A stretch of 64,000 nucleotides of DNA from Candidatus Heimdallarchaeum aukensis (GCA_021513695.1 CP084166.1:1504001-1568000), one strand, 5' to 3'; positions 911 to 32,339 are shown, counted from the first letter of the stretch. Notes: a model not told the origin generated them from the letters alone. Numbers and translations: made by a program.

Positions 911-1333
911 ATGTCAGAAAATAGCGTTACTATGGCAAAAATGACCAAATTAGTGGCAGAGGAACCAATCGAGTTACCTGAAGAATTTTTGGAAGCTCTT
1001 AAACCAGATGGAAAGAGTCATGCAGTGTTAATTTTAGCACCGAATACTAGAATAATAAGAATCATACCCACAGAATCGCCTGAAGTGATAAAGATTAATA
1101 TCAATATAGGAAAACTTTCTCCAGATTTCCTACGTAAAATGGGATCAATCTTTATTCGACTTGGGATTAAAACTTTGTACAGCACTGGGTTGTGTTTCAC
1201 TCAAAGCGCATGTGTATACGAAGGGTACATAGATAGTGAAGAGTTAAAAGAAGTTTCTATCGACACAATAAAGGACGAGTTAGAGAGAATAGAAGGCGTT
1301 TCTAGCGTCGAAGTAGAACATCTAACAGTGTAA
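911..1333 (+). CDS. hypothetical small cytoplasmic protein (140 aa)
   Basis: ORF with an SD-like aaaggtgg 6 nt upstream. No motif I can assign confidently; there is weak resemblance to AbrB/ACT-like small regulators. Confidence 0.4.
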   Translation: MSENSVTMAKMTKLVAEEPIELPEEFLEALKPDGKSHAVLILAPNTRIIRIIPTESPEVIKININIGKLSPDFLRKMGSIFIRLGIKTLYSTGLCFTQSACVYEGYIDSEELKEVSIDTIKDELERIEGVSSVEVEHLTV

Positions 1334-1448: not shown

Positions 1449-2147
1449 CTAAGCAAGACTATCTACTTGCTCTTTTTTTTCAGAAAGAATTTCTTCTTCT
1501 ACTTCTCCTAGTACCCAGTCACCTAGAGAGATAGAAAAAGTTGTATCTTGATGTCCGGGGCATTCAATACGAATCGTTAAACTTTTTTTTGTTTTTTCGA
1601 TAATAGTGGGAACCAGACAGTTATCTTCTAGAATATCTATTAAAGCTGAAACATAAGTATCAGAGATCGAGCTTATACTTTCTTCTTGAATTCTATTTCC
1701 CAAAGGACCTAACTTATAACAAGTTTTTCTACCTTCTTTATATTTAGAAATAAGCCCTGCTTCTATCATTCTTTCTACATGATGTCGTACTGTATCATGA
1801 TGTAAATTAAGTTCTCTTGCAATATCAGATTGATAGGTTCCTTCATTATTCGCTATACAACTAAAAATTTTTTTAGCTGTTGGATGTTTTATTGCAGTAA
1901 AAGCCTTTTCTACCTCTTCTGTTCTAAGATTTCTGGGATAATAGACCCTTTTTCCACCAAATTTTATAGATTTTATCAAATTAGCTTTTTCTAGTTGTCT
2001 TAAGTGCCAGTCAATAGTTCCCTGAGGGAGAGACAAAATATTGGAGAGTTCAAAGAAATACAGACCTGGTGTTTCACAAAGTATCTTATAGATTTCTTTT
2101 CTTTGAGGATGCAAAATTAATGTTTGCTCTTTCCTTTTTATAGGCAT
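1449..2147 (-). CDS. transcriptional regulator with two tandem winged-HTH (ArsR/TrmB-like) domains
   Basis: Two repeats of the pattern IL..L...P....ELS......QGTI..HL..L..A.LI.....GKR.YY and ...IF..I....GTYQSDIARELNLHHDTVRHHVERMIEAGLISKYKEGRKTCYKL. It is divergent to the MoxR operon. Confidence 0.6.
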   Translation of the reverse strand: MPIKRKEQTLILHPQRKEIYKILCETPGLYFFELSNILSLPQGTIDWHLRQLEKANLIKSIKFGGKRVYYPRNLRTEEVEKAFTAIKHPTAKKIFSCIANNEGTYQSDIARELNLHHDTVRHHVERMIEAGLISKYKEGRKTCYKLGPLGNRIQEESISSISDTYVSALIDILEDNCLVPTIIEKTKKSLTIRIECPGHQDTTFSISLGDWVLGEVEEEILSEKKEQVDSLA

Positions 2148-2277
2148 AATGTCCCTCTCACAATATTATATTTACTACTTCTTTGTTAAAAAACTTTTTT
2201 GAGAAACAAGACTAAATTCGAGAAATGATAAATATATAGATTTTTAAGTGAGTATAGCGAGTTGTTTTTGAGTAGAA

Positions 2278-3279
2278 ATGGGTGCAACAAAAAGCAAAAA
2301 AACGAGCACTAAAGAGATTAATATAGAAGATATTTCTATCAAAGTTCAAGAAATAAAAAAGGAAATTGCTAAAGTAATTGTAGGACAAGAAAAGGTTATT
2401 GATGCTCTAATAACAGCTGTGCTAGCAGATGGTCATGTTTTATTAGAAGGAGTTCCTGGAATTGCAAAAACATTGATGGTAAGAGCTCTTTCTAAGGCTA
2501 TTTCTGCAGAATTTAAGAGGATCCAATTCACTCCAGACTTGATGCCATCAGATGTAACTGGAGTTATGGCTTATCGTCCCGAAACGGGTGAATTTTATTT
2601 CAAAAAGGGACCAGTTTTTACAAATATTTTACTTGCAGATGAAATAAATCGAGCTCCACCTAAAACACAAGCAGCAATGTTAGAGTCTATGCAAGAAAAA
2701 CAAGTTTCTGTTGAGAAACAGACCTATTCACTCCCAGATCCATTTTTAACTTTTGCAACACAGAATCCACTTGAACAAGAAGGAACTTATCCTCTTCCAG
2801 AGGCACAAATAGACAGATTTGCATTCAAGCTTCTGGTTGATTATCCTGAGGAAGAAGAAGAGATCCAGATAGTTAATAGGTTTACTGGAGAATATGATTC
2901 TTATGATAAATTAGAAGATGTCAAACCAGTATTAGGTTCAAAAGAAATAATTGAATTTCAAAAATATATCAGAAAAAATATTTCAATTTCTGAAGAATTA
3001 TCAAGATACATAGTAAGAGTTGTTAGCCTTACCAGAGAAAGTGAAGAAGTCGCAATTGGTGCAAGCCCAAGAGCGAGCCTATGGTTGACAATCTCTGCAA
3101 AGGCTTCTGCTGCTATGGCAGGAAGAAAATTTGTTAAACCAGAAGACATCCAAAAAGTTGCAGTAAATGTTCTCAGACATAGAGTAATAATCAAGCCTGA
3201 ATATGAATTTGATGGAACAACTTCAGAGATGATTATTGATAGAATAATAAAACACACTCCAGCACCTGTAGTAGAATAA
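2278..3279 (+). CDS. moxR: MoxR-family AAA+ ATPase
   Basis: Walker A GHVLLEGVPGIAKT, Walker B ILLADEINRAPPKTQAAMLE, sensor region and a size of about 330 aa. Classic MoxR subfamily organisation. Confidence 0.85.
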   Translation: MGATKSKKTSTKEINIEDISIKVQEIKKEIAKVIVGQEKVIDALITAVLADGHVLLEGVPGIAKTLMVRALSKAISAEFKRIQFTPDLMPSDVTGVMAYRPETGEFYFKKGPVFTNILLADEINRAPPKTQAAMLESMQEKQVSVEKQTYSLPDPFLTFATQNPLEQEGTYPLPEAQIDRFAFKLLVDYPEEEEEIQIVNRFTGEYDSYDKLEDVKPVLGSKEIIEFQKYIRKNISISEELSRYIVRVVSLTRESEEVAIGASPRASLWLTISAKASAAMAGRKFVKPEDIQKVAVNVLRHRVIIKPEYEFDGTTSEMIIDRIIKHTPAPVVE

Positions 3280-3293
3280 AAAGGGCGATTAAG

Positions 3294-5468
3294 TTGAAAT
3301 CGATTAAATCGAGAATCTTCCTTTTGATATTAATTCTGGAATTCATAGTTATAGGTGCACTAAGTGTTACAAAAGTAACATTATCTAATCATCAAAACAT
3401 TGTTCAAGCAGAAGAAGGAGATTTGACAGTAACAATCCGAAGAGAGCAAATTTATTATAAAAATAACACAGAACTAACTAGAGGATATATTTATTGGGCA
3501 GACTTAAAAGGAGGAACTTTGATACTTTATGGAAATACTTCTTCATCAGAAATGTTCTCTTACGCATTTTGGGATTCAGTAGGAAATTATTCAAGTGACA
3601 GATTAACTTTCTATCCAGACAGAATAGAGATTCAGATTAGAACAACAGAATTATACTACGAGATATATGGTGCTTATCACCCAGATTATTTTATCGACAC
3701 TAATTTCATTGTAATCTTTGACACATTTTGGGCGCAGTTTAGTTATATTACTCCAGAAGGAGAAGAAAGGTATGCACCTGTCAATTATTATAATAAACAA
3801 GTACTTCCTGAAGGAGCAGGACTGGTAAGTTATGCCCCTACTGATGGAGCTCTAATTGAAAAAGTAGGAGAAGAAATATATGCAATCGTATGGGAATATA
3901 AAGAAAGAATGATGGATCCATTTCACGAACCCTTTCCCTATGAAATAACTTATACATTTGACCCAATTTATTTGGCTTTCACTGAACAAATGTTTCAGAA
4001 CCAACAAGAACGACAAAAAAATGAAAATGAAAAGAATTTGTTAGATATGCTTAAAACCTATTTTAAATTGATTGCATTTCTTGCTGTTATTCTTAGTATT
4101 GTTGCTGCGATATTTGGTTATTTACGTGCAAGGCATAAGTTCAAGTCAAAGCTACAAGAAGCAATCAACCTACCTAAAAGAATGTTAAAAGATATTGAGA
4201 GAGAAGTTGAACCTTCAAAACGGGTATCATCCATGTTTAGTGCGGGTTTCTTTCTGTTTTTGTTACTGATGCCCGTAGTAACATCACAATTACAAGACGT
4301 ACAAACTACTGAACCGATGTTAGTAAATAATAATACACAGATTGGTTTAGCAGGGCTTAACTCATCTCTTAAACAAGAGGATCGTGATATTCAATATACC
4401 GCAATTATTGATTTAGGAAAAACAGGAATTTCCTTTGAGACAGTAATAATGGAACTTCCCTATACAGTAGAAAATTTCAGCATTTGGGTAAACACTGAAA
4501 GTGTCATAGAGTTTAACGCTTATGACAGTTCTGGTTTACCAATTTCATATCAAGAATTTTCTGATCACTACTTGATACGCAATGTAAAAGGGTATATTAG
4601 ATACGAAATTATTAAACCCTATCAATATTATAACAATAGTAATATTTTAGTGTATATAGACTATTTTTGGCTTAATTTCTTTGATTACGAGATAGGAAAT
4701 TATTCAAGAGCAGATATTCAATATACTCTTATCCTCCCAGAGGATTCTATATTATATAGTGCTTCGCCAGAATCAATTCTTACTCTTGGAAAAACTCCAG
4801 AGGGAAGAAGAAAGGTAACTTTTACAGACTATAATCGCCAGATTGACCCTTACCATGACTTATTTTCTTGCCAAGTCACGTACTCATTTATTGATGTTTT
4901 AGACGCAATAGAAAATGAATCAGCGCGTTTCGAACACTTTAGGGTGGAAACTAAACTCACTCAAGAACAGATAAACACTCTTACAAAAAACATAATGTTT
5001 CTCGCGTTTATTGCAATTATCGCACCAATATTAGCTTTCTTACTCTCATATTATATTATGAGAAACCGAATGATGAAAAAGATAAAAGAAGAGGAGCAAA
5101 AACATGAGCTTTTAATTTCTGTAGAAGAATTACAGATTAAAGCTCTCAATGAAAGTGGAAAAATCGATGAGAATAAAGAACCATGGAAACCGATGTTAGG
5201 AGGTTATTGGGAACTACTAGCTTACCTTAGTAGATATACTCCTATAAACTTATTATCGCTAGACGATTCTATGCATGAAAAAATTCTCTCAAAATACATT
5301 CCTAAACACTTACGCCAAGAAATTTTTGAGCTTTTATCTACAGGACGAGCCATTTCTTCATCAATAAAAAAAGGAGAAACAATTTATTTCACAAAAAGTC
5401 AAGCTAGAGATTATTTAGAAGCCATAATGAAGGCAATCGAAAAGATGGAAAAAGAAAGGAAAGGATAG
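3294..5468 (+). CDS. large membrane protein with internally duplicated ectodomain module (724 aa), uncharacterised
   Basis: N-terminal signal/anchor IFLLILILEFIVIGALSV, then a ~230-aa Tyr/Trp-rich beta-type domain, TM, basic stretch, and a second hydrophobic segment. The second ~230-aa domain has matching motifs (YEIYGAYHPDYFID...DTFWAQFSY versus YEIIKPYQYYNN...DYFWLNFFDY). A TM and a ~130-aa coiled-coil cytoplasmic tail follow. Stop/start is coupled to moxR. Confidence 0.55.
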   Translation: MKSIKSRIFLLILILEFIVIGALSVTKVTLSNHQNIVQAEEGDLTVTIRREQIYYKNNTELTRGYIYWADLKGGTLILYGNTSSSEMFSYAFWDSVGNYSSDRLTFYPDRIEIQIRTTELYYEIYGAYHPDYFIDTNFIVIFDTFWAQFSYITPEGEERYAPVNYYNKQVLPEGAGLVSYAPTDGALIEKVGEEIYAIVWEYKERMMDPFHEPFPYEITYTFDPIYLAFTEQMFQNQQERQKNENEKNLLDMLKTYFKLIAFLAVILSIVAAIFGYLRARHKFKSKLQEAINLPKRMLKDIEREVEPSKRVSSMFSAGFFLFLLLMPVVTSQLQDVQTTEPMLVNNNTQIGLAGLNSSLKQEDRDIQYTAIIDLGKTGISFETVIMELPYTVENFSIWVNTESVIEFNAYDSSGLPISYQEFSDHYLIRNVKGYIRYEIIKPYQYYNNSNILVYIDYFWLNFFDYEIGNYSRADIQYTLILPEDSILYSASPESILTLGKTPEGRRKVTFTDYNRQIDPYHDLFSCQVTYSFIDVLDAIENESARFEHFRVETKLTQEQINTLTKNIMFLAFIAIIAPILAFLLSYYIMRNRMMKKIKEEEQKHELLISVEELQIKALNESGKIDENKEPWKPMLGGYWELLAYLSRYTPINLLSLDDSMHEKILSKYIPKHLRQEIFELLSTGRAISSSIKKGETIYFTKSQARDYLEAIMKAIEKMEKERKG

Positions 5469-5470
5469 AA

Positions 5471-6154
5471 ATGAAACAAGTAACAAAAATCATAATATTT
5501 TCAATGGTTGTTAGTTTACTACTAATTCAGATCAATAATGTCAATGCTAAAGAAACAGTTTTTACTGCTACACAAATAATAGATATAAACGAAACTACTC
5601 AGATAACAGTTTCCATGGCAGCCCCGTTAACTTGGGAAATAAACACGGGAATAAACATTTCTGTAAATATAAAGTTATCAAAAATTGCTCAGAATGATAG
5701 TCTATTTATTACTTATATCAAAACAGAATATAATATTCCAGGAAAACAATTCCCCGAAGACCAACAAATCACAATAATTGAAAATAATCTAACAAATATC
5801 GGTGAACAAATCAGCATTAACCAAACTCGTTATGCACCTGAGAATACTGATGAATTTAACATTACCTTATCGATCCTTGCTCAGACAGTAAACATGACCA
5901 GTACAGAAGAGTTTTCCATGGATTTTCCAGGAAAAGGTGAAGATAATATTTTAGTTAAGAAGAATTTAGTTCTGCCTATAATCAATCTGCCTGGTTTCCC
6001 CAATATCGAAACATTTAGCAGGTGGATAGTTATCTTTGTTGTGATTCAATTAGTTATTATGTCACCTGCGCTCTTTGTCTTATATTTCAAAATAAAAAAA
6101 CAAAGAACACGGGGCCAGGTATCGAAGAAAAAAAGGAGTGGAGAAGATGAGTAA
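5471..6154 (+). CDS. secreted or type-I membrane protein, signal peptide plus C-terminal TM anchor and basic tail (227 aa)
   Basis: N-terminal MKQVTKIIIFSMVVSLLLIQINNVNA, C-terminal WIVIFVVIQLVIMSPALFVLYF followed by KIKKQRTRG. Start is 3 nt after the upstream stop. Confidence 0.5.
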   Translation: MKQVTKIIIFSMVVSLLLIQINNVNAKETVFTATQIIDINETTQITVSMAAPLTWEINTGINISVNIKLSKIAQNDSLFITYIKTEYNIPGKQFPEDQQITIIENNLTNIGEQISINQTRYAPENTDEFNITLSILAQTVNMTSTEEFSMDFPGKGEDNILVKKNLVLPIINLPGFPNIETFSRWIVIFVVIQLVIMSPALFVLYFKIKKQRTRGQVSKKKRSGEDE

Positions 6155-7745
6155 AACTGAAACTAAACAACAAAATCCCTTAGAAAGAGGAGTAAGAAAA
6201 ATAGATGTTCTGATGCGTTCATTTGGAATGCGTACTAGAATGTTTAAGGGAAAAACGAGAGGGATAGTAAAGGGAACAAGAAAGGTTTACCCTCATGAAG
6301 TCAATGCTACGATTGTAGAGACAGCAAGGGGAGTAGGAATCAAAATAAAGATGGAAAAATTGTGGTATTCATTTCTAAAAGGAATTCCTTTTCTATTTCT
6401 GATAATACTCTCTCTAATTCAATTAATTGCACCAAAAATTGGAGAGAATATGGCAGAAAATGTTGGTTTTAATTTGTTTGCACTCTTTCTTGGAACAAGA
6501 ACTAAATCTATTGGATTACTAATTACGCTTTTTATTATTGGAGGAATTTTTATTGTTAGTGAGATAATAGAGAGGACAATTAGATTGAGATATCTCCAAG
6601 ACAGGATGCCCAGATTTTTGAGTGGAGCTGAATGGACAACTGCTGATTCACCATTATTATTAGATATCATAAGTTCTACAAATAATATTTTGTGGTTAGC
6701 ATATCTCATATTAGTAATAATCTTTGCACCATTTTCTTTTTCATCAGAAATAATTGAAAAGTTTGTAACAGTATATCAAACTGGCATAGTTAATTTGCTA
6801 GAAGGTACAACGCTTGTTTCACTACTAGATATATCAATAATATCCAGTATGTTATTTACAATATTATTGCTAAATTACAAGTCGTTTAGAGAAGAAATAG
6901 ATTCAAAGCAAAGAGCAAGCAGAGTAAAAGTAGATTATAGTACAACACAACTTTTAGAAGTTGTCTTTGGTTCAATTACACTTATCACATTTGAAATAGT
7001 TCTATTTTCATTTATGTTTTGGACGGATCTTACTTTAATCCAAATTATAATGACTTATAGCGTTACTGTAGCGGCTAGTATTCTAAGTGTGTGGCTTTAT
7101 TGGCAGAGAGAAAACTATATTTTCATTTTTCTTGAGATATGGCTTTTCTTAAGCATAGTAGTCATGGTTTTCAGTAACGCAAATAATCCTAAATTCTCTT
7201 GGATGATAATTTGCCACCTTTTCCTAATTCTGACAATTTTAGGTTTGTATTTTAATCAATTTTTCAAATCTTATTTAGAAGAAAAAGGAATATATGAACC
7301 TAGTTGGATGTTTAATTCTTTCCCAATCTTTGCGATTATTGAAGTCCTTAAAAAAGCAAAAGTAAGAACTACAAAAGGAGTACAAAAAGAATTAGAAGAA
7401 ATAAGAACAGAAGAATTAACAGAGAAAATAAAAGAACGTTCTCCTCTTATAATTCCGCTTGAAAAAATAACTAAAAAAGGAAAGGATGCAAAAAAGATAA
7501 TCAACACATACCAAAAAATTATCGACCGCATAACAAAGAAAGATGTAAACATTATTACTTTATCTGTAATTAATGAAGAGATTTTAGCGCTAATACAAGA
7601 TGAAGCAGAACTAAGGAAAAAAGTAGAAAACTTATTCCAAATTATTGATCATCTTCTTTGGGACGAAAGCTATATCCTGAAAGATGGAAGCAAATATGTT
7701 GAAATAACAGAACAACTCTACAGCGCAGTCTTAAAGGCAAGGTGA
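6138..7745 (+). CDS. polytopic membrane protein (8 or more predicted TM) with C-terminal cytoplasmic coiled-coil domain (535 aa)
   Basis: Multiple 20-25-residue hydrophobic runs. The C-terminal ~140 aa are charged/helical (EELTEKIKERS...AELRKKVENL). It overlaps the upstream gene by 17 nt. Confidence 0.55.
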   Translation: MEKMSKTETKQQNPLERGVRKIDVLMRSFGMRTRMFKGKTRGIVKGTRKVYPHEVNATIVETARGVGIKIKMEKLWYSFLKGIPFLFLIILSLIQLIAPKIGENMAENVGFNLFALFLGTRTKSIGLLITLFIIGGIFIVSEIIERTIRLRYLQDRMPRFLSGAEWTTADSPLLLDIISSTNNILWLAYLILVIIFAPFSFSSEIIEKFVTVYQTGIVNLLEGTTLVSLLDISIISSMLFTILLLNYKSFREEIDSKQRASRVKVDYSTTQLLEVVFGSITLITFEIVLFSFMFWTDLTLIQIIMTYSVTVAASILSVWLYWQRENYIFIFLEIWLFLSIVVMVFSNANNPKFSWMIICHLFLILTILGLYFNQFFKSYLEEKGIYEPSWMFNSFPIFAIIEVLKKAKVRTTKGVQKELEEIRTEELTEKIKERSPLIIPLEKITKKGKDAKKIINTYQKIIDRITKKDVNIITLSVINEEILALIQDEAELRKKVENLFQIIDHLLWDESYILKDGSKYVEITEQLYSAVLKAR

Positions 7746-7749
7746 TATA

Positions 7750-8691
7750 ATGTCTAATCCAGCCAAAGAAGAAAAAAAAACGTTACAAAAAGATAAAGTA
7801 AAGATTCCTATAAAAAAACTGAAAAAACTAGAAATTTTAGCAAAAGAACGTTCAACAAGCTTTCTACAAGGACATCGAAGATCGATCTTTAGAGGACCAG
7901 GAACCGAATATGCAGATTTAAGAGAATATGTTGAGGGAGACGATCTCAGATTTGTTGATTGGAATGCATCATCACGTATTCCTTTCAAACTAATTGTTAG
8001 AGATTATGAACAAGAAAGAAATACAAATGTAGTTTTGATGCTTGATGTTAGTCATTCGATGTTATTAGGTGATCCAGTACCAAGGATCAAACTTGCAGTT
8101 GAAGCAAGTGCTACATTAGCTTATACAGTCCTAATAAATCGAGATTTATTTGGTTGGGCTAGTTTCTCAGATAAACTACACAATTATATTCCTCCCCGTG
8201 GTGGAAAATTGCACTTTTATCATATTGTTCATGAAATGCTCAAGATTGCTCCACATGGTAAAACTAATATCGGTGATGCTATTCGTGAAGTGGCTTTATC
8301 TTTAAAGAGAAGATCAATAATTATCTTACTCACTGATTTACATGGAAATTTAGAAGGTGCAATGAATGGTTTTAAAGTTGCAAAATTAAAAAAACACGAA
8401 GTTAAAGTAATTCATACTGTTGATCCAGAGGAATTTCTTTTTCCAAAGAATCCTAGACAAGTAAAATACCTTGATCCTGAAACAAATCAAATGAAAGTAG
8501 TTAATTTTAGTAATTTGCTTGAACGAGGAAAATATAATTACGAAATTGGTTTAAAAATCAAGGAAATTAACAATTTTAAGAGAAACATAAGAGGGTTAAA
8601 CATTGACGTAGTTACTGCATCAACTACAATGTTAACTGAGAGATTATTACTTACTTATTTTGGATCAAAGAGAGGGAGGGCTTTAAAATGA
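7750..8691 (+). CDS. DUF58 family protein (vWA-like fold with MIDAS), MoxR partner
   Basis: Signature GPGTEYADLREYVEGDDLRFVDWNASSRIPFKLIVRDYEQE followed by the MIDAS-like VVLMLDVSHSM. DUF58 is canonically encoded next to MoxR ATPases. Confidence 0.8.
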   Translation: MSNPAKEEKKTLQKDKVKIPIKKLKKLEILAKERSTSFLQGHRRSIFRGPGTEYADLREYVEGDDLRFVDWNASSRIPFKLIVRDYEQERNTNVVLMLDVSHSMLLGDPVPRIKLAVEASATLAYTVLINRDLFGWASFSDKLHNYIPPRGGKLHFYHIVHEMLKIAPHGKTNIGDAIREVALSLKRRSIIILLTDLHGNLEGAMNGFKVAKLKKHEVKVIHTVDPEEFLFPKNPRQVKYLDPETNQMKVVNFSNLLERGKYNYEIGLKIKEINNFKRNIRGLNIDVVTASTTMLTERLLLTYFGSKRGRALK

Positions 8692-10559
8692 AAAGAAACT
8701 TAATATCTGTTTCTCTAATATATCTTGTTATAATAAGCACTTTTAGCTTTGTTGTAACTTCTGATTTCAAAATCGTTTCTGCTGGGAGTAGTAGTTCTGG
8801 AGATATTCCTCCACCAGGTGGTCAAGGAGGAGAGGATACTAGCGGCGGTGGTGCTGCAGGAGGGTTATACCTCAATTATCGTATTCCATTAATATTTAAG
8901 AAAGGAGATTTTGCACCAACGTTTATTGCAATTACAGCTTTACCCATCTTTCAAAATGAAACTATAGTAATTTTTGGTTATAATTCTTCATTATTTGAGA
9001 ATAATCAAGCTATTATAAAGGGAAATGAAACACTTATAATTGATCCTCGAGACGAACCTGAGTTAACAAATGGTTCATTGATACAATCTTTTTCTCCATT
9101 ACAAATTACTGTTTTTCATCCAAATACAAATAATGAAAGCGATAATTCATTTTCTTATTCAGTATTAGTTATGCAAAATTGGGGAAAGAAATATCTTTCT
9201 TCTTTTTCAGATATGAGAGCAATTATAGTTGCAGGCTTTAACAGTACAAAGTTAACAATTAATAACAATGGAATAATGCAATATGAAACCATTGATCTGA
9301 TTGGACAAACATTAGATATTTCGGTTACTAAAGGAACCATTATAGAAGCAAATGGACCAATAGGAGTGGTTTTTTACTCTTTAACAGATAGCCAAGGTTC
9401 TTTCGCTTATACAGGAGTCCCATATTACATGTGGGGAAAAGAGTATTTTACACTCCCTCCACCAAGAAAAACGCATGATACCTTAATTGAAGATAACTCT
9501 ACTTTAGTACTTGGGAATATAAATGAAGGAGGAACTTTAATTTTCGAAACTTCAGAAGAAGAATCAGATATATTAAACTTGGAAGAAAATCAAACAATTA
9601 CATTAGAAAAACAAAAGTTAGGAACAAATGATTATTATACACATTTTCTATCTGCAGCTGTAAACTATTCTGTTACTACGTTATATTCTTATGTTATCAA
9701 TGGTACTATATACAAATCTGCATTCCAATATATTTCTACAGAAAAGATGAGATGGGCAGAATGGTTCTATAATAATAAAATATCAGATAACCTAAAAATC
9801 TCTTCTGTTTCTTTGGATGATTCAAATATTATTCTTCCAATACTACTATATGAAGGGCAATTAGTTATTGATCTCGAAAATTATTCTTCTGTTGACAGGG
9901 GCGAATATTATTCATATAAACAAGGAACTAGTTATGGCGTTATTTCAGCTAATGGTTCTTTGTTTGCTTCACAGATTGTATCAGATGAAGAAAAAATATT
10001 AGAGAACAGCCTTTCTCATTTACTTTTTCCAATGAATCTTTACTCTTTTGTTGATAACACGAGCTCCTCTTTTCCGAGTTGGTATCATTTTCCAAACATA
10101 AATGTAAAAGAAGTAAATGTCTACCCTGAAAAACCAACAGAACTAAGAAAACTTAAACTTGAAATTGTTATTCAAAATAATGGTAGTATTCCCTCTGCTC
10201 CATTTTGGGTCAGCATTTTTAGAAATGATACTATAAAGATACACAAAAAAATAGACGGATTAGATATTAATGAAACTTTTAGCATTCCTTTTGAGGAATT
10301 TCAAGGATTCGGACTTAAGACATTAAACATATCCATCTACACAGACTCTTTAAGTCAAATATTTGAATTAATAGAATTTGATAATGCATATGAACTTATG
10401 ATTAAAGTTAATCGTAATTGGAATATAATCTATGTTGGAATTGCAGTTTCTGTACTAATAATAGGTTATCTTTCTTATCTTGTAATAAGAAAATTTGTTG
10501 CCAAATATAAGGAAAACAAGAGAAAATTCGATATTATTCTAAGTGAGATAGAGGTCTAG
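8688..10559 (+). CDS. secreted Gly-rich/N-glycosylation-rich surface protein with C-terminal TM anchor (623 aa)
   Basis: Signal peptide LISVSLIYLVIISTFSFVVTS, low-complexity SGDIPPPGGQGGEDTSGGGAAGG, many NxS/T sequons, and a C-terminal TM IIYVGIAVSVLIIGYLSYLVI plus RKFVAKYKENKRKF. It overlaps the DUF58 gene by 4 nt. Confidence 0.55.
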   Translation: MKRNLISVSLIYLVIISTFSFVVTSDFKIVSAGSSSSGDIPPPGGQGGEDTSGGGAAGGLYLNYRIPLIFKKGDFAPTFIAITALPIFQNETIVIFGYNSSLFENNQAIIKGNETLIIDPRDEPELTNGSLIQSFSPLQITVFHPNTNNESDNSFSYSVLVMQNWGKKYLSSFSDMRAIIVAGFNSTKLTINNNGIMQYETIDLIGQTLDISVTKGTIIEANGPIGVVFYSLTDSQGSFAYTGVPYYMWGKEYFTLPPPRKTHDTLIEDNSTLVLGNINEGGTLIFETSEEESDILNLEENQTITLEKQKLGTNDYYTHFLSAAVNYSVTTLYSYVINGTIYKSAFQYISTEKMRWAEWFYNNKISDNLKISSVSLDDSNIILPILLYEGQLVIDLENYSSVDRGEYYSYKQGTSYGVISANGSLFASQIVSDEEKILENSLSHLLFPMNLYSFVDNTSSSFPSWYHFPNINVKEVNVYPEKPTELRKLKLEIVIQNNGSIPSAPFWVSIFRNDTIKIHKKIDGLDINETFSIPFEEFQGFGLKTLNISIYTDSLSQIFELIEFDNAYELMIKVNRNWNIIYVGIAVSVLIIGYLSYLVIRKFVAKYKENKRKFDIILSEIEV

Positions 10560-10562
10560 TAA

Positions 10563-12947
10563 ATGAGCGAAACAGATGTAAAGCAAAAAGAAGAAGTAGA
10601 AGAAGTAGAGGAAGTAGAGGAATCATTCACTAAATTTAGTGTTATACTTGGACGAGATCTAATCTTCTTAGATTGGACAGTAAATTTTGGTGGACAAATC
10701 TTAGGTTTAGTAGTTGGTTTATTATTAGGAGTAATTTTTGGAGCCAAGATGGGGACACTCTTTAACATAGATGTTCCTGTTGACATTAGTGCATATATTG
10801 CCCTACAAGTTGGAATACTTCTTAGTATCACTAGTTTAACAATTTATTATTTATCAAAGCTCGGCATTAAGGTTAACAGTCCAAAATCAATTGCAAGTAA
10901 GAAACTTCTTCTTCTAAAAACAATAATGTTTGCTTTTTCAGCTATCTTTGCTTTAAGCTATTTATTTAATAGTCATATTTTCCCATTTATATATGCAAAT
11001 TATAGCTCTATAAAACCCCCAGAACCAGGACAAACAGGAACTGGAGATGGAGGTGAAGGAAATACAGTAGATATTCCTACAACTAACCATTATATTGTTC
11101 TTATTGCATTGATCGTTCTTGTTGCAGCTTCATACGCTTTACTTTATGCAGGATTGTTTTACTCTTTTAACAAAAAAGCCAACACGATGACAGGAGTTGC
11201 AATAATGGTTAGCACTATAATGGCAGCACTTACATTACTAAGCCAAAATCAAAGCGTCCAAAAGCTAATTGATGGAGAAATAATGGCTTTTCTTACAGAT
11301 TTTGCATATTTCTTCTTAGTAGCTTTAATAGCCATTCTTTCATATCACATGTGTAGGAGAATAGAATTATCCTTAATTATAATGTATATAGGTTTCATTT
11401 TTGGTTTTGGTGCCCCTTCAAATGCTGTTTCACAGATCATCGCTTTAAAATGGGGTTTTCCAAACTTTTCTGATGGAATTAATTCTACTTCAGATGTTAT
11501 TACAAGGACTCTTGAACTTATAGAGTATGTAAGTTTATTTGGAATTGTTGTTTACCCACTTATTTTTTACAAGGATACAATATCAGCATTAAAAGAATTG
11601 AAGAAGATGTATAGATTACCTTTCCTATTAATTAAATTTTTAGGGTTAATAATAATCACACCATTTAAGATAATATTCAAACCAAAAATTTTAGTTCATT
11701 TTTATAATGGAGTTAAACAAATAGTAATTGATGAAGAAAAAAGAAATATCTCTTTCAAAAAATTAAAAACAAAATTAAGCGAGGAATTTAAGGCTATTAC
11801 TTCCTCAGAAGGTTTTTCTGTCACTTTGTTTGCTGCTGTGCTTATCTTAATTGAAGTGACAATACTCTTTTTAGCGAATCTACTGGGAATTTTCCTTTAT
11901 TTCATCGCTTTTCTCATTTTAATAGGTATTGTAAATAGTATTATTACTTCAAAATATGGAGCTGCAAGTTATACAGCAATGTTTTCTGCATTAACAGAAT
12001 CTTCTTTGAGTGTATCTCCTTTAGTTCCTGACATTAACGTACAAATTAAATTCTTAGAATATAAGAAAAAACAATTAGAAAAAACAAAAATTGCAGTTGG
12101 TACTTTAATTCCTGTATTTGCTTACTACATAATTGCTTACATTACTACAGCAATAACTAAAGATACGTCTCTATTGACAATACTTTTCTTAATGATTCTT
12201 GTTCCTATCAGTCTTGCTTTAGCTTCTTTTTCAATAAGCTTCTTCTATGTCAAAAAACCACTAATTAAAGAGATTTACACCTATCCACTTCGATTTTTCT
12301 ATTTTTTGGGATTGATAGTATACTTTTCGATTTCTGTTTATCGCTTAATATACAACCAAATTGGTCTTTTTCCAGCTTTTTCGCTTCTCTATCTTGTTTT
12401 AATCTATATCACTTTCTCAAAGAGATCTAAACTTTCTGAACTTATTTTATTTCTAGGAACAGAGAAAAGAGATAGAGCATTTAATGAACTTATAAGTAAA
12501 AAAAATCTCAATATTGATGTTTTATTGCAAAATTTAGATGATACACCATCATATCTCAGCTTTTGGATAAGTGCAATTCTAATTAAGAGAAACAAAAAAG
12601 AGGTTATTACTTACTTAAAAGATCTACTCAAACAAGACTATAAATATCAAAGAGTAATAGGAGCATTGTCTTTACTTTATTTAAACGAATATGATTATTT
12701 AGAAGAACTTGTTAATTTACTAGAAAACGACCCCGACCCCTACTTACGAGAAGCAATAGCTTACGGATTAAGATATTGCAAAGATATGAAAATAGATATT
12801 TACAAGAGAATTATTGACGCACAACATTACGAAGATAATTCAAAAGTTTTAGTAAGGCTCAAGGAAACAATCTCCATCTTAGATAGATACTTTGCAAACA
12901 AAGAACGAAAAGAAGAAGAAATGGAAGAACTCGTAGAAGTAATATAA
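10563..12947 (+). CDS. polytopic membrane protein (12 or more predicted TM) with acidic N-terminus and C-terminal HEAT/PBS-lyase-like repeats (794 aa)
   Basis: N-terminal EEVEEVEEVEE, a long series of hydrophobic helices, and C-terminal repeats of the E..VR..A..ALG type (DPDPYLREAIAYGLRY; YQRVIGALSLLY). Last gene of the operon. Confidence 0.55.
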   Translation: MSETDVKQKEEVEEVEEVEESFTKFSVILGRDLIFLDWTVNFGGQILGLVVGLLLGVIFGAKMGTLFNIDVPVDISAYIALQVGILLSITSLTIYYLSKLGIKVNSPKSIASKKLLLLKTIMFAFSAIFALSYLFNSHIFPFIYANYSSIKPPEPGQTGTGDGGEGNTVDIPTTNHYIVLIALIVLVAASYALLYAGLFYSFNKKANTMTGVAIMVSTIMAALTLLSQNQSVQKLIDGEIMAFLTDFAYFFLVALIAILSYHMCRRIELSLIIMYIGFIFGFGAPSNAVSQIIALKWGFPNFSDGINSTSDVITRTLELIEYVSLFGIVVYPLIFYKDTISALKELKKMYRLPFLLIKFLGLIIITPFKIIFKPKILVHFYNGVKQIVIDEEKRNISFKKLKTKLSEEFKAITSSEGFSVTLFAAVLILIEVTILFLANLLGIFLYFIAFLILIGIVNSIITSKYGAASYTAMFSALTESSLSVSPLVPDINVQIKFLEYKKKQLEKTKIAVGTLIPVFAYYIIAYITTAITKDTSLLTILFLMILVPISLALASFSISFFYVKKPLIKEIYTYPLRFFYFLGLIVYFSISVYRLIYNQIGLFPAFSLLYLVLIYITFSKRSKLSELILFLGTEKRDRAFNELISKKNLNIDVLLQNLDDTPSYLSFWISAILIKRNKKEVITYLKDLLKQDYKYQRVIGALSLLYLNEYDYLEELVNLLENDPDPYLREAIAYGLRYCKDMKIDIYKRIIDAQHYEDNSKVLVRLKETISILDRYFANKERKEEEMEELVEVI

Positions 12948-13922: not shown

Positions 13923-14612
13923 TTATTTTAGAATAATTCTTGCATCTACAGGAAATATTCCATTAGAGTTTGCAATTAAAGGATTAATATCCATTTCTCC
14001 TATGTATTCTCTGTATTCCCATGCTAAGTTAGAAAGTTTAGACATAATTTCTGCAAGTTGTTCTCTATTAACTGGAGCTAATCCTCGAAAGCCATTAAGC
14101 AATTTTTGTGTTTTTATTTCGTCAATGGCTGATAATGCTTGTTCTTTAGAGCATGGGCACATTCTAAAAACAACATCCTTTAGAGCTTCTACAAAGATTC
14201 CACCTGGACCTACTAGTATTACTGGGCCAAATGTTTTATCGATTTGGCTTCCTATAATTAATTCAACTCCTTTTTCAACCATTTTTTCAACTAATATGCC
14301 TACAACTTCTCTCTCAGCAAAACGGTTCATATAATCGTTAAATGTTTTTTTTACTTCTTCTATTGTAGCAATACCAATTTTCACAGCTTGTTCATCAGTC
14401 TTATGCAAAACTTGTGGTGACATCACTTTCATTGCAACAGGCCCATTAAATTCGTTAAAGGCCATAATGGCTTCTTCTTCTGTTTTAACAAGTTTTGAAG
14501 GTGGTAAAGGTAAGTCTAACAATCTAAGAATTTCTTTTGCTTCATGTTCAAGTAGAGCTTTTCTATTTTCTGACTTAACTTTTTCAAATATTTCTTTAAT
14601 TTGTACGTTCAT
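13923..14612 (-). CDS. acetyl-CoA synthetase (ADP-forming) beta subunit, ATP-grasp domain
   Basis: ATP-grasp region LSEHEAKEIL...GPVAMKV.SP...HKTD.GGV. It sits directly downstream of the alpha subunit. Paralog of 37061-37753. Confidence 0.75.
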   Translation of the reverse strand: MNVQIKEIFEKVKSENRKALLEHEAKEILRLLDLPLPPSKLVKTEEEAIMAFNEFNGPVAMKVMSPQVLHKTDEQAVKIGIATIEEVKKTFNDYMNRFAEREVVGILVEKMVEKGVELIIGSQIDKTFGPVILVGPGGIFVEALKDVVFRMCPCSKEQALSAIDEIKTQKLLNGFRGLAPVNREQLAEIMSKLSNLAWEYREYIGEMDINPLIANSNGIFPVDARIILK

Positions 14613-14626
14613 CTTCCCATCTCCTT

Positions 14627-16048
14627 CTACAGATTTTTCCCTCTCTTCTTCAAGTAATTTGCATATTCAACAAGTCTTCCTACAGCTCTTATTGCACTCC
14701 CTGGGCTTTTAAAAACAGCAAAGTCTTCTTTTAGCAAAACATCATAAGCATAATCTGCTTCTTCTCCACCTATAAGCGCAGTTACGAAAGTTTTTTCTTT
14801 TCTGCTTGCTATCTTCCTTGTTATTTCTATATATTCATTAATGTCTAAGTTAGGGATACTTGGAATGCAGATATTAACAACTGCATCAACTTCAGGATCT
14901 TCATAGACTGCTTCCAAGGCTTTTTCATAATCCTTTGCATTTGCCGAACCAGTAATATCAATAGGATTAGTTGTAGAGTAATAGACTGGAAAGGTCTCAT
15001 CTAGTTTTTTCTGAATCTCTGGTGAAAATTTAGCTAGTTGTAACTTACAATCAGAAACCATGTCTGAAGCCATTACTCCTGCACCACCTCCATCCGTGAC
15101 AATAGCAACCCTATTTCCTTTCGGAAGAGGTTGGGTGGCAAATGAAATGACACAATCCTCCAACTCATCCCAAGTAATTACTCTTTGAAATCCTGCTTCT
15201 TTGAGGAGATCATCAACAATTGCGTCATCAGAAGATAATGCAGCAGTATGTGATGCGCCCGCTTTAGCACCTGCTTCTGTACGATTTGCTTTTATTCCAA
15301 GTACAGGTTTCTTTAAACTTACTTCTCTTAGAGTTTCCATGAATTTCCTGCCATTCTTGAAATCCTCAAGGTAAACAAGTATCATTTTTGTATCTTCATC
15401 ATCACCTAGATATTCAATGCAATCTGCTTCATTAATATCCGAAGCATTTCCATAAGAAATGAATCGAGCTATCCAATTTCCTGAACCCAGTCTAGCTAAC
15501 TGATCAATAAAAGCTGCACCAAAAGCTCCACTTTGCGTAAAAATTGATACATTTCCTGGTTTTGGTCTTTTTAGCTTGTTTACTGGTAAGAACATAGTAT
15601 CATATCCTAATACAGGAGAATATAACCCCAGACAATTAGGACCAATGATATTGATATTATAGGTTTTCATAATATCATTCATTCTATTCTGTATAGCAAC
15701 TCCTTCCTCGCCTATTTCGGCGAAACCCCCTGTAGTTACAATTACATTCTTTATGTTCTTTTTACCACATTCTTCCAGTGCTTGTGGAGCGAATTTTGCT
15801 GGAACAATAATAATTGCAGCATCAATTTCTTCTTCAATATCTAACACAGATTTGTATAATGTATATTCTTTACCTGCAAAAATGTGTGTTCCTCCACGAG
15901 GATTGACTAAAAATAATTTACCGGGAAAATCTTTAGCAAAATTCTCAGCAACAACTCCTCCTGGCTTCAGTAAATTTGTTGAAGCGCCAATTACACAGAA
16001 ACTTTTTGCATTAAAGAAATTAGCTATTCTATTGCTCATTCTTATCAT
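14627..16048 (-). CDS. acetyl-CoA synthetase (ADP-forming) alpha subunit, CoA-binding/succinyl-CoA-synthetase-like
   Basis: N-terminal FFNAKSFCVIGAS CoA-binding Rossmann fold, the NCLGLYSP motif, SGAFGAA and the His-containing GASHTAALS. Paralog of 37754-39187. Confidence 0.8.
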   Translation of the reverse strand: MIRMSNRIANFFNAKSFCVIGASTNLLKPGGVVAENFAKDFPGKLFLVNPRGGTHIFAGKEYTLYKSVLDIEEEIDAAIIIVPAKFAPQALEECGKKNIKNVIVTTGGFAEIGEEGVAIQNRMNDIMKTYNINIIGPNCLGLYSPVLGYDTMFLPVNKLKRPKPGNVSIFTQSGAFGAAFIDQLARLGSGNWIARFISYGNASDINEADCIEYLGDDEDTKMILVYLEDFKNGRKFMETLREVSLKKPVLGIKANRTEAGAKAGASHTAALSSDDAIVDDLLKEAGFQRVITWDELEDCVISFATQPLPKGNRVAIVTDGGGAGVMASDMVSDCKLQLAKFSPEIQKKLDETFPVYYSTTNPIDITGSANAKDYEKALEAVYEDPEVDAVVNICIPSIPNLDINEYIEITRKIASRKEKTFVTALIGGEEADYAYDVLLKEDFAVFKSPGSAIRAVGRLVEYANYLKKRGKNL

Positions 16049-23465: not shown

Positions 23466-24725
23466 CTACTCTAATTCTCCAATATCTGTTCTCCAATATA
23501 ATTTTCCTTTTATTTTTGTAATGTCTTCGATTACTTTTCTCTTTGCCTTAAAGATATCGTTTCCTACACCAAGAAGAGCAAGAGAACGACTAGTTGTTGT
23601 TCTTATTGTTCCATTTTCTCTATAAACAGAAGCATAAAAGAGATCAGATTTTAACGGATAGCTAATTGTTATTTTTTCATCTTTTAAAGGATTAATAGGG
23701 TATCCTTTTGGAACAAGATAATTACAAACAGTAGCTTTATTTTCAAAATTTACTTTTTTCAAGGATTGATCGATCATATTCTGATTGATGACATTGTAAT
23801 CATCTTTTAACAGTTTCAACACATTAATAGCTTCAGGGTCTCCAAAACGCGCATTAAATTCAATTAAGAAAACGTTTCTTTCTGATTTCATAAATTGTCC
23901 ATAAAGAACTCCAACATAAGGAATGTTCGTATGCTCCTTTAGTGCCTTGATGGTTTTTTTCAGAATATCAACAGCTTTTTCAACATCATTTTGTTTCAAG
24001 AAAGGTAAATGATGATCAGGAAGACTGTATGAGCCCATGCTCCCCGTATTTGGTCCTTTATCTCCCTCATATGCTCTTTTATAGTCTCTAACCAAAGGCA
24101 TTAATTGAATATTTTTTCCATCGGTAAATACCTGAAGAGAAAATTCTTTTCCTTTTACTTTTTTCTCAATTATTACTAATCCATCTTTCGCGATAGTTTG
24201 TTTAACAATCTCTTCTGCTTCAGAGTATGAAGAAAAATGGTCACCAAACACTTTAACTGCTTTTCCTCCAGTTAATCCATCAGGTTTAATAGCAATTTCC
24301 AAACCATTTTCTTTAACAAAAGACTCAAAATCACTAATAGTCTTACATATTTTGAAAACAGGGTTACCCTCTATTTCGTATTTCTCAAGTAAGTTTCTAG
24401 CAAATGATTTACTTGTTTCTATTTTAGCTACTTCTTGTCTAGGACTTGCAACTGGGATTTCTAACTTGTCCTCAATGTAATTAGTTAATCCAAAAGACAG
24501 AGGTAATTCTGGTCCTATTATTGCATAATCAATATTCTCAAATTTGGATAGTTTTTCAAAATTCGTCAGATTTCCTAGTATGAACTTTTCTGATATATCA
24601 GCTATTCCTGGATTTTCATAAGCCATGTATGAAAAAAGCTTATTTTCATTTTCCACTATTTTTTTGGCCATAGCATGTTCTCTGGCCCCATTACCAATTA
24701 ACAAAACTTTTTCTGCCATTTTCAT
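23466..24725 (-). CDS. purD: phosphoribosylamine-glycine ligase
   Basis: N-terminal VLLIGNGAREHAMA, ATP-grasp core, 419 aa. Last gene of the pur operon. Confidence 0.85.
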   Translation of the reverse strand: MKMAEKVLLIGNGAREHAMAKKIVENENKLFSYMAYENPGIADISEKFILGNLTNFEKLSKFENIDYAIIGPELPLSFGLTNYIEDKLEIPVASPRQEVAKIETSKSFARNLLEKYEIEGNPVFKICKTISDFESFVKENGLEIAIKPDGLTGGKAVKVFGDHFSSYSEAEEIVKQTIAKDGLVIIEKKVKGKEFSLQVFTDGKNIQLMPLVRDYKRAYEGDKGPNTGSMGSYSLPDHHLPFLKQNDVEKAVDILKKTIKALKEHTNIPYVGVLYGQFMKSERNVFLIEFNARFGDPEAINVLKLLKDDYNVINQNMIDQSLKKVNFENKATVCNYLVPKGYPINPLKDEKITISYPLKSDLFYASVYRENGTIRTTTSRSLALLGVGNDIFKAKRKVIEDITKIKGKLYWRTDIGELE

Positions 24726-26116
24726 TCCTCATAATGACTACGAGATTTTATCTCTCCATTTAGGTATTTTATTCTTAATTCTTCAGCATAAGAAGTTGGA
24801 TAACTACCTGAAAGACAAGCAGTACATAAATCAGAAAAACCAATTGATCTTTTTAATGCAACAATATCTTGATAATATAATCCGTCAACATTTAGGATTT
24901 TTTCTATTTCTGTTAGAGTATTCCCTGAAGCTATTAAGTCGTTGTCAGAGGGAATATCTATTCCATAATAACATGCAAATCTCACAGCGGGACAAGTGAT
25001 TGCGAGATAGATGTTGTTAACTCCCAACCTTCTTAAATCATTAACAATTTTTTTGCTAGTTAACCCTCTAACTACTGAATCATCGATTAGTAAAATATTT
25101 TTTCCTTTTATATATTTAGGAATGTAAAGATATTTTCTTTTAGCAGCTTTGCTTCGCTCTTTTTCGCTTTTCATTATGAAAGTGCGCTGAAGATAACGGT
25201 TTTTTATTATAGCTTCTCTTACTGGAATACCTAGTTCTTCAGAAAGACCTTGTGTTGCGGGTCTGGAAGTGTCTGGAACAGGAACAATGTAATCAATTTC
25301 TAAATTGTCACTTTTTATTCTTCGTGCTAATTCTTTTCCTAGATTAATTCTTGTATCATAAACCAATGTATTTTCTATAGTTGAACATGGATTAGCAAAA
25401 TAGACATATTCAAACATACAATGAGCATGATCTGCTTGAATTAGATGGCATTTGTCAATTTTTTCATTATCAAAAATTATTAATTCTCCAGGTCTAACAT
25501 CTTCAAAAGAAGTAATATCGATGTTTTGTAAAACAACGCTTTCAGATGAAACAATAGTAAGATTTTCAGATTTTCCAATAACTAAAGGTCTTATTCCCCT
25601 AGGATCCCTAAAAGTAAACATTGTTGTATCAAGGATTGCCACAATAGAATAGCTTCCATCTATTTTTTCCATAAATTCTTTTACAGCATTTTTTATACTC
25701 CCTTCGTAATAATCAATTAAAGAACCAAGGAATTCTGTTAAAAAAAGAGCGTCAGATTCATATTTTTTGTTTGTTAAAGTACTTAAATTAGTTATATTTC
25801 CGTTATGGACAACAAATAGGTTACCATACTTCGTTTTAACTTTAAATGGCTGAGCATAAAGTTCAACATTTGAGCTATCAGTTCTTGCTCCAAAAGTAGG
25901 ATAACGTGTTGAACCGATTAGTTTAGTTACTTCACTTTTTTCGTTGAGTTCAAGTAAATCAGGGTATCCATCAACTTTTTTTAAATTCACCTTTTTTTCA
26001 TTCTTATTTATCCAAGCTATTCCACTTGCATCTTGTCCTCTATGCGTTAGCATTTGTAGCAATATTTTTCCTTGTTCCAAAGTTGTTAACCCTGATATGC
26101 CTAATACTCCACACAT
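24722..26116 (-). CDS. purF: amidophosphoribosyltransferase
   Basis: N-terminal MCGVLGI (Ntn catalytic Cys) and the PRTase domain motif ILLIDDSVVRGLT. Confidence 0.9.
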   Translation of the reverse strand: MCGVLGISGLTTLEQGKILLQMLTHRGQDASGIAWINKNEKKVNLKKVDGYPDLLELNEKSEVTKLIGSTRYPTFGARTDSSNVELYAQPFKVKTKYGNLFVVHNGNITNLSTLTNKKYESDALFLTEFLGSLIDYYEGSIKNAVKEFMEKIDGSYSIVAILDTTMFTFRDPRGIRPLVIGKSENLTIVSSESVVLQNIDITSFEDVRPGELIIFDNEKIDKCHLIQADHAHCMFEYVYFANPCSTIENTLVYDTRINLGKELARRIKSDNLEIDYIVPVPDTSRPATQGLSEELGIPVREAIIKNRYLQRTFIMKSEKERSKAAKRKYLYIPKYIKGKNILLIDDSVVRGLTSKKIVNDLRRLGVNNIYLAITCPAVRFACYYGIDIPSDNDLIASGNTLTEIEKILNVDGLYYQDIVALKRSIGFSDLCTACLSGSYPTSYAEELRIKYLNGEIKSRSHYEE

Positions 26117-26117
26117 T

Positions 26118-26723: not shown

Positions 26724-26732
26724 CTTTAATTT

Positions 26733-29445: not shown

Positions 29446-29460
29446 TTTTTTCTACTCCTT

Positions 29461-32336: not shown

Positions 32337-32339
32337 CCT

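Follow-up and report, generated by a model that had tools for sequence, protein, structure and literature searches.

A probable MoxR-vWA chaperone operon and its five lineage-specific membrane proteins in Heimdallarchaeia

MoxR-vWA pairs are widespread, and few of them have known clients. What might such a pair serve when it is encoded together with a series of large membrane proteins? This question is raised by a gene cluster in Candidatus Heimdallarchaeum aukensis. We analyzed a stretch of 64,000 nucleotides of this archaeon (GCA_021513695.1 CP084166.1:1504001-1568000, hereafter the window), in which seven co-directional open reading frames (ORFs) spanned positions 2278-12947. The original prediction, made from the sequence, had described a packed operon of MoxR, a DUF58 protein of the vWA type and five membrane or secreted proteins without an assignable family (here p724, p227, p535, p623 and p794), and the ORF map reproduced its coordinates exactly. 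The cluster is best described as a MoxR-vWA chaperone operon whose five membrane proteins are particular to this lineage. Its junctions measured, in gene order, +14, +2, -17, +4, -4 and +3 nt, that is, gaps of at most 14 nt or short overlaps, which bore out the packed arrangement. The tight junctions thus stood as predicted, and the gap-free start did not, as moxR and p724 were separated by 14 nt. The 17-nt overlap of p227 and p535 was also reduced to 8 nt when the ATG at 6147, the likely true start of p535 in an alignment of orthologs, was used.

A scan of a genome collection with DUF58 retrieved 25 loci, all in Heimdallarchaeia-type metagenome-assembled genomes, and the gene content of each locus was established by tblastn and ORF extraction. 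In every locus that was long enough, all seven genes were intact, nearly constant in length and in the same order; about 24 genomes of Heimdallarchaeaceae showed this arrangement. The window proteins were 84-100% identical to those of Ca. Heimdallarchaeum endolithica PR6. Outside the genus, identity to the window was 78% for MoxR, 75% for DUF58, 56-64% for p724, about 50% for p535, 40-55% for p623, 36-42% for p794 and 33-41% for p227. MoxR identity was 95% in the sister species PR6, 77-80% across Heimdallarchaeaceae and about 60% in the divergent contigs L027 and L029. A protein search with DUF58 added a second tier of relatives at 45-53% identity. The same seven-gene order with similar gene sizes was found in L027, L028 (Kariarchaeaceae) and L030, the last being reached through a relative of p724. 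In these more divergent lineages DUF58 was 48-53% identical to that of the window; the accessory proteins were 22-34% identical, and p794 only about 15%. A third tier, with DUF58 relatives at about 30% identity, consisted of bacterial Bat-type operons with the order MoxR-DUF58-BatA...BatD (L031 and L032). The synteny and the tiered DUF58 relatives together indicated that the block is old, has been kept vertically in Heimdallarchaeia and is distinct from its nearest relatives. A survey of the gene neighborhood had been suggested with the prediction, and the block was recovered both in the Heimdallarchaeaceae loci and in L027, L028 and L030. The idea that the genes were juxtaposed by chance, or that some ORFs were spurious, could draw on nothing beyond the missing annotation of three proteins; it was contradicted by about 28 loci, with DUF58 identities of 48-96%, in which intact ORFs of constant length kept their order, and by conserved motifs in each family, so that the synteny data already refute it and its probability is next to nil.

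Searches with the partner proteins led back to the same lineage. Word-indexed profile searches gave 47 relatives of p724 and 52 of p623, and all named sources were Heimdallarchaeota, Heimdallarchaeaceae or Kariarchaeaceae. An exhaustive HMMER profile search with p724 against 1.84 billion cluster representatives yielded 27 hits, including approximately eight full-length clusters, and the hits carrying names were from Heimdallarchaeota or Kariarchaeaceae. When metagenomes were scanned with the p535 profile, 16 loci were detected, all from the same Heimdallarchaeaceae-like clade. No relatives outside Heimdallarchaeia, judged by source name, identity or gene context, were seen in the word-indexed, exhaustive hidden Markov model (HMM) or metagenome searches. 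A literature search returned no study on a MoxR system in Asgard archaea; the two terms occurred together only in a general treatise on ribosomal-protein trees. The divergent contigs had further genes near the block. In L027 (15214-20900) and L028 (9778-15487) the operon was followed by a conserved trio, absent beside the window operon, which encoded an AAA_16 ATPase (about 560 aa) and two proteins with apolipoprotein-like helical repeats, about 430 and about 1480 aa long. On the 2.85-Mb European Nucleotide Archive (ENA) contig L030, a 434-aa protein encoded a few genes upstream of the operon (5548-6849) had weak hits to UQ_con, RWD and FANCL UBC-like domains (E2-like fold).

MoxR and DUF58 are, by their sequences, ordinary members of their families, and the identities predicted for both were upheld by Pfam and by intact motifs. 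MoxR scored 214.3 bits against AAA_3 (gathering threshold, GA, 27) and 73.9 bits against AAA_lid_2. Its Walker A (GxPGxAKT), Walker B (DE), sensor 1 asparagine, arginine finger and sensor 2 were invariant in 20 orthologs. DUF58 scored 126.7 bits against PF01882 (GA 23.4) and 44 bits against VWA_2, and its metal ion-dependent adhesion site (MIDAS), DxSxS...T...D, was invariant in 28 orthologs. Neither protein had transmembrane (TM) segments. In all loci DUF58 was encoded in the same operon as MoxR, with three genes intervening rather than next to it.

The topologies of the five partners, derived from hydropathy and charge, reproduced those described in the prediction, and all five are integral membrane proteins. 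In p724, an N-terminal signal/anchor helix was followed by ectodomain 1 (aa 32-250), a TM segment, a basic cytoplasmic loop (aa 281-311), a TM segment, ectodomain 2 (aa 334-561), a TM segment and a 133-aa cytoplasmic domain with a helical bundle (aa 631-723). The two ectodomains were internal duplicates (hhalign 98.9%, E 3e-17), as had been proposed; no other paralogy among the five partners was found with hhalign. Conservation of p724 across all lineages peaked in the ectodomain cores, a juxtamembrane FDxI(Y/F)LxF motif, the loop motif A(R/K)xLPR...D(I/V)E and the segment after TM4. In p227, the signal peptide was followed by a beta-rich ectodomain (about 150 aa, 7 N-X-S/T sequons), a TM segment and a basic tail. 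The basic cytoplasmic N-terminus of p535 carried an invariant ETARG motif, and after about eight TM segments came a helical domain of about 160 aa at the C-terminus, also cytoplasmic. No match in Pfam, NCBIfam, PADLOC or PDB sequences was obtained for either p227 or p535, and NCBIfam contributed no assignment for the other three partners either. An invariant motif, LxGFP..F..W, was aligned at aa 171-185 of p227, right before its C-terminal TM segment, and recalls PGF-CTERM sorting signals. The first P of LxGFP was variable and the tail was long and basic, so p227 was not taken to carry such a signal; p227 and p623 were likewise dismissed as PGF-CTERM archaeosortase substrates (TIGR04126) after no NCBIfam hit was returned. 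DUF4129-like C-termini or a degenerate TgpA-type transglutaminase in p724 and p535 had no Pfam support, and their C-terminal domains were unrelated in hhalign.

Two of the partners could be placed in known families, at least in part. In p623, a signal peptide and a conserved SSSSGD-PPP-Gly-rich linker preceded an ectodomain of 545 aa with 17 sequons, which was followed by a TM segment and an acidic cytoplasmic tail, FD(V/I)ILS(D/E)(I/V)EV, conserved within Heimdallarchaeaceae. The Pfam scores of the window protein were marginal (IgGFc_binding 28.5 bits, GA 25.6; CARDB 21.9 bits, GA 22.7), and those of the ortholog in L030 were clearly above threshold (CARDB 48 bits, IgGFc_binding 38 bits). Structure models were made with AlphaFold2 (AF2) for p724 and p623. 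That of p623 was an array of beta-sandwiches (predicted local distance difference test, pLDDT, 81.6; predicted TM-score, pTM, 0.78), for which Foldseek returned CARDB 3idu at a TM-score of 0.85 and otherwise generic MG/Ig-like arrays. The p623 ortholog in L025 (10660-12522) contained two in-frame TAA stops in a short out-of-register stretch (aa 452-458); these are a local frameshift, an assembly error or a pseudogene and not recoding. In p794, about 14 TM segments preceded a soluble HEAT-repeat domain (aa ~621-794), presumably cytoplasmic. The family profile of this C-terminus matched alphaRep/HEAT structures in PDB with an E of 6e-18, and HEAT_2 scored 44.3 bits in the L030 ortholog (GA 27.7) and 17.9 bits in the window protein alone. 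Residues ~345-407 (window ~11595-11783) formed an insertion of about 60 aa that was present in the window and PR6 only and absent from all other orthologs; it held an extra hydrophobic segment which, if membrane-spanning, would reverse the membrane orientation of everything in the C-terminal half. Hits of p794 to CPBP/Rce1-like proteases (PF02517) were sub-threshold (20.0 and 17.4 bits, GA 22.4) and limited to the L027 and L028 orthologs. There was none in the window or L030, and of the catalytic motifs of this family (EExxxR, FxxxH and HxxxN) motif 1 was degenerate (FALLYAG) in the window clade. We did not assign a CPBP identity to p794, since the few hits stayed below threshold and its catalytic motifs were degenerate in the window clade.

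The prediction of five membrane or secreted proteins therefore held, and its statement that none had an assignable family held for p227 and p535 and not for p623 (IgGFc_binding and CARDB), p794 (HEAT) or p724 (Ost1-like predicted fold). Three partner families are without any annotation, and one is ribophorin I-like by predicted fold only. The sequons exceeded composition-matched shuffles only in the ectodomains of three proteins (p724, z 2.9; p227, z 3.3; p623, z 4.2), and no excess was seen in the cytoplasmic and polytopic proteins. This enrichment is consistent with surface glycoproteins.

The operon was compared with the MoxR systems described to date, and it matched no described operon type, as had been proposed; BatA-E, TPR, transglutaminase and beta-propeller domains were not found. 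The closest were the bacterial Bat and Cmd operons (Cmd, RL3499-RL3502), which are linked to envelope integrity and stress (PMC5700661, PMC11834572). These share with the present operon an MRP-type MoxR (AAA_3), a DUF58 vWA protein, several membrane proteins and a helical-repeat protein (TPR in Bat, HEAT here), and Bat-type operons were its nearest outgroup by DUF58 sequence. A functional analogue of Bat/Cmd, protecting the envelope against oxidative or physical stress with archaeal membrane proteins in place of the vWA-TM and TPR proteins, would agree with this kinship and with the phenotypes described for Bat and Cmd (PMC11834572, PMC5700661). However, the membrane-anchored vWA proteins BatA/BatB, present in L031 and L032, were not detected by Pfam in the five partners or their orthologs, nor were TPR (BatC/BatE) and BatD (PF13584) proteins. 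Further, three genes separate MoxR from DUF58 here, no redox domain was found, and all five partners belong to Heimdallarchaeia-specific families without bacterial relatives. We regard equivalence to Bat/Cmd as quite unlikely.

Other MoxR systems resembled the operon in fewer respects. In the PFNA cluster of Bifidobacterium, MoxR and DUF58 are encoded beside an FN3 beta-sandwich surface glycoprotein and a polytopic membrane protein (PMC8430577), an arrangement which recalls the present one. Unlike the PFNA cluster and the MoxR-DUF58-transglutaminase triad, the operon had no Ser/Thr kinase or FN3 domain, Transglut_core and DUF4129 gave no hit in the partners or their orthologs, and its membrane proteins were unrelated. 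NorQ/NorD, CbbQ/CbbO and RavA/ViaA offer the template of an AAA+ ring with a MIDAS-bearing adaptor, and such MoxR and vWA pairs remodel or mature a dedicated client complex that is sometimes membrane-bound (PMC3893208, PMC8926400). These pairs come from other MoxR subfamilies and act on defined enzymatic clients, whereas the presumed clients here are five membrane or surface proteins that do not look enzymatic. If the operon were a MoxR-vWA ternary system for conflict or defense, in which surface sensors work with effectors in the membrane, this would account for the fast evolution and lineage restriction of the accessory proteins and for a secondary hit of MoxR to the bpMoxR model (46 bits). 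But AAA_3 scored far above bpMoxR, and neither the beta-propeller domain of the MoxR-vWA-beta-propeller systems nor an effector domain was present. The six non-MoxR products had no match in PADLOC; MoxR had only weak generic AAA+ matches (best DolB, 21 bits) and the neighboring regulator HTH-only matches. Throughout the family the block was conserved vertically and occupied one fixed housekeeping locus, and the neighboring genes were those of core metabolism rather than of a mobile or defense island. A defense role is thus very improbable.

Ribophorin I is a eukaryotic signature protein of the oligosaccharyltransferase (OST) and translocon, and Heimdallarchaeia are close archaeal relatives of eukaryotes. 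The AF2 model of p724 had a mean pLDDT of 69.6, with values of 80-92 over both ectodomains. When this model was used in Foldseek, the seven best hits were all ribophorin I/Ost1 chains (E 4.8e-15 to 4.7e-11), and the next class of hits started at about 3e-6. As the alignments to these seven chains extended over 600-795 columns, the match covers the whole architecture, and the resemblance was obtained with two independent structure-comparison programs on one and the same model. In fold and architecture the predicted p724 had two extracytoplasmic beta-sandwich domains, a TM segment and a cytosolic helical bundle, as Ost1 does. Sequence comparisons did not reproduce this. The Pfam family Ribophorin_I (PF04597) was absent at E<=1 with the full-length protein and at E<=10 with the isolated ectodomains, and the p724 family profile had no hit to PDB sequences at E<=10. 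With hhalign, p724 against yeast Ost1 (the query being 100% identical to 6c26_1) and human RPN1 had a non-significant probability of 0.5%. A faint domain-level signal (E 0.015-0.02) around an (L/I)PEGA strand, common with the second Ost1 domain, was not significant. A small Ost1 HMM ranked p724 first among all window ORFs, and its E of 0.048, which was not significant either, was not accepted as a link in sequence.

The proteins also differed in several features. Ost1/ribophorin I has a single C-terminal TM anchor (type I), whereas p724 had four hydrophobic segments; two of them, joined by the basic cytoplasmic loop, make up an additional TM hairpin that separates the ectodomains. The two ectodomains of p724 were recent-looking duplicates of each other, and p724 shared its operon with MoxR/DUF58 instead of AglB or OST3. 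Genes for AglB, OST3 or Sec were not seen among those window genes that were inspected, nor in any related locus. A hit to oligosaccharyltransferase had been named with the prediction as a result that would speak against it; the match obtained here concerned the fold of one subunit only and did not make the block a known OST or MoxR operon, and the p724-OST1 link rests on one predicted structure. OST3, STT3 and ribophorin were reported to be universally distributed across Asgard phyla (PMC8813620), and canonical OST1 was reported across Asgard archaea (PMC10307638, PMC11417166, PMC8813620). Since a canonical OST1 is already reported there, p724 is probably an additional OST1-like protein rather than the OST1 orthologue.

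Two stronger versions of the resemblance were considered. In one, the operon is a glycoprotein biogenesis module linked to the translocon and OST, with p724 as a true Ost1/ribophorin I paralogue beside Sec61/AglB; p724 would hold nascent glycoproteins of the p623 or p227 type for N-glycosylation or insertion, and MoxR/DUF58 would assemble or recycle the complex. We regard this module as unlikely. That p724 is a genuine, highly diverged Ost1/ribophorin I paralogue and the operon a Heimdallarchaeia-specific translocon/OST-like accessory complex, assembled in a MoxR/vWA-dependent manner, is also rather unlikely. In such a complex a ribophorin-like scaffold would be joined by polytopic subunits and by type I glycoproteins with beta-sandwich folds; if real, the complex would be an archaeal system bearing on the origin of the multi-subunit endoplasmic reticulum translocon and of the OST periphery.

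The explanation that we favor, with moderate confidence and partly by analogy, is a Heimdallarchaeia-specific, vertically inherited operon for a membrane-embedded cell-surface complex that would be serviced from the cytoplasm by MoxR and its DUF58 adaptor. The seven genes were co-inherited as a block, the ATPase and MIDAS were intact, the partners had membrane or surface topology, and cytoplasmic elements were conserved. Sequon-rich beta-sandwich ectodomains were predicted on p724, p227 and p623. The conserved cytoplasmic domains were the helical bundle and basic loop of p724, the N- and C-terminal domains of p535 and the HEAT repeats of p794, and both p623 and p794 ended in conserved acidic C-terminal tails. 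In the proposed sequence of events, DUF58 would bind through its MIDAS to an acidic element that the membrane subunits expose to the cytoplasm, the docked DUF58 would recruit the MoxR hexamer, and ATP-driven remodeling by MoxR would assemble, mature or switch the complex. The docking and remodeling steps were proposed on the basis of established MoxR biology (NorQ/D, CbbQ/O, RavA/ViaA) and the envelope effects of Bat/Cmd. We infer a working mode that may be like that of NorQ/NorD on the membrane-bound NO reductase, of CbbQ/CbbO on Rubisco, or of the envelope-affecting Bat/Cmd operons. Here p724 could be a ribophorin-like scaffold or a holdase for an exported polypeptide, and the output would most likely be the biogenesis or maintenance of a glycosylated surface structure.

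Several points weigh against this explanation. The block was not absolutely invariant, because in L029 the first five genes were kept and a hydrolase after DUF58 replaced the last two. Binding of the MIDAS to acidic tails is speculation, and the acidic tail of p794, ...EE(Y/L)xEEI, was kept only within Heimdallarchaeaceae. We infer the physical association of the seven products, and thus one envelope assembly of 'clients', from co-inheritance and topology only. The TM and loop regions of the p724 model were of low confidence, and Pfam, the PDB profile, hhalign and the Ost1 HMM all gave no sequence-level link between p724 and ribophorin I. Enzymatic activities in p227, p535 or the membrane part of p794 may also be missed.

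The presumed client set is unusually well defined for a MoxR-vWA pair, comprising five co-inherited membrane proteins confined to Heimdallarchaeia. If the ribophorin link is real, the operon would provide a testable handle on the function and assembly of archaeal ribophorin-like proteins and on the biogenesis of surface proteins in this lineage. Should only the fold be shared, the operon would still define between three and five new protein families, and its architecture would be a new one among MoxR operons. The coordinates of its genes, of the adjacent regulator and of the putative promoter are listed in Table 1.

Table 1. Position, strand and basis of assignment of the operon genes and adjacent elements in the window
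Feature	Position	Strand	Basis
MoxR AAA+ ATPase, 333 aa, MoxR-proper (MRP) type, cytoplasmic	2278-3279	+	AAA_3 and AAA_lid_2
p724, 4-TM, two homologous beta-sandwich ectodomains, Ost1/ribophorin-I-like predicted fold	3294-5468	+	
p227, signal peptide, ectodomain, C-terminal TM anchor, basic tail	5471-6154	+	topology, ortholog alignment
p535, polytopic, ~8 TM	6138-7745	+	topology, ortholog alignment
DUF58, 313 aa, cytoplasmic vWA with intact MIDAS; canonical MoxR partner	7750-8691	+	PF01882 and VWA_2
p623, signal peptide, Gly-rich linker, multi-beta-sandwich ectodomain, TM anchor, acidic tail	8688-10559	+	Pfam, AF2, Foldseek
p794, ~14 TM, C-terminal HEAT domain, acidic tail	10563-12947	+	profile vs PDB, alignment
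Double wHTH (winged helix-turn-helix; ArsR/HTH_20-type) regulator, 232 aa	1449-2147	-	Pfam, NCBIfam
Conserved TATA-box-like element ATAGATTTTTAAGT, family consensus ATAcTTTTATAAG, putative operon promoter	2236-2249	+	

The TATA-like element, ATAxxTTTxTAAG, was located about 35 nt 5' of the moxR ATG and had ten invariant columns in an alignment of six upstream regions. It was kept in all six loci irrespective of the orientation of the regulator gene. The element fits an archaeal TATA box, and we regard it as a putative promoter. At the other end, a 77-nt spacer with its own TATA-like sequence was found between p794 and degV; the operon therefore probably ends at 12947. A scan for bacterial sigma-70 promoters and terminators, which is unsuited to archaea, gave no excess over the shuffled expectation and was set aside.

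The regulator was composed of two wHTH units in Pfam. In 15 other Heimdallarchaeaceae loci its gene was co-directional with the operon and lay between a 140-aa ORF and moxR, and it was inverted only in the window and in PR6. No clear flanking inverted repeat that would explain the inversion was found (best arms 21 nt, 71% complementary). The regulator was absent from L027, L029 and L030, and the L028 contig begins within the block. It is a neighbor in Heimdallarchaeaceae only, outside the conserved core. The divergent double-wHTH gene, which the prediction had described as positioned to control the operon, was confirmed together with its domains and not as a core part of the system; moxR has its own TATA-like box. 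The 140-aa ORF (window 911-1333, +) was 87-88% identical across the other Heimdallarchaeaceae and 100% identical in PR6, exceeding the conservation of MoxR, and had no Pfam, NCBIfam, PADLOC or PDB match. It was always upstream of the regulator and operon in Heimdallarchaeaceae and was not found there in other lineages; the 140-aa ORF upstream of the block in L029 was unrelated. With this restriction to one family, it was not counted as part of the system.

Three ORFs of 329, 231 and 727 aa at 29461-33329, similar in size to genes of the block, were suspected to be a second copy of the operon and turned out to belong to a purine biosynthesis operon. This operon (23466-33329, -) contained unusual fusions, namely a 776-aa PurB-PurM fusion (Lyase_1/ADSL_C with AIRS/AIRS_C; 26733-29063, -) and a 329-aa PurC-PurS fusion (SAICAR_synt with PurS; 32340-33329, -). 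Two loci of the ADP-forming acyl-CoA synthetase type (CoA_binding/Succ_CoA_lig with ATP-grasp_5) were located at 13923-16048 (-) and 37754-39187 (-), and the former was kept downstream of the operon in all Heimdallarchaeaceae loci. The window also encoded a 991-aa RtcB tRNA ligase (54207-57182, +) with an intein inside, its Intein_splicing domain covering aa 108-605.

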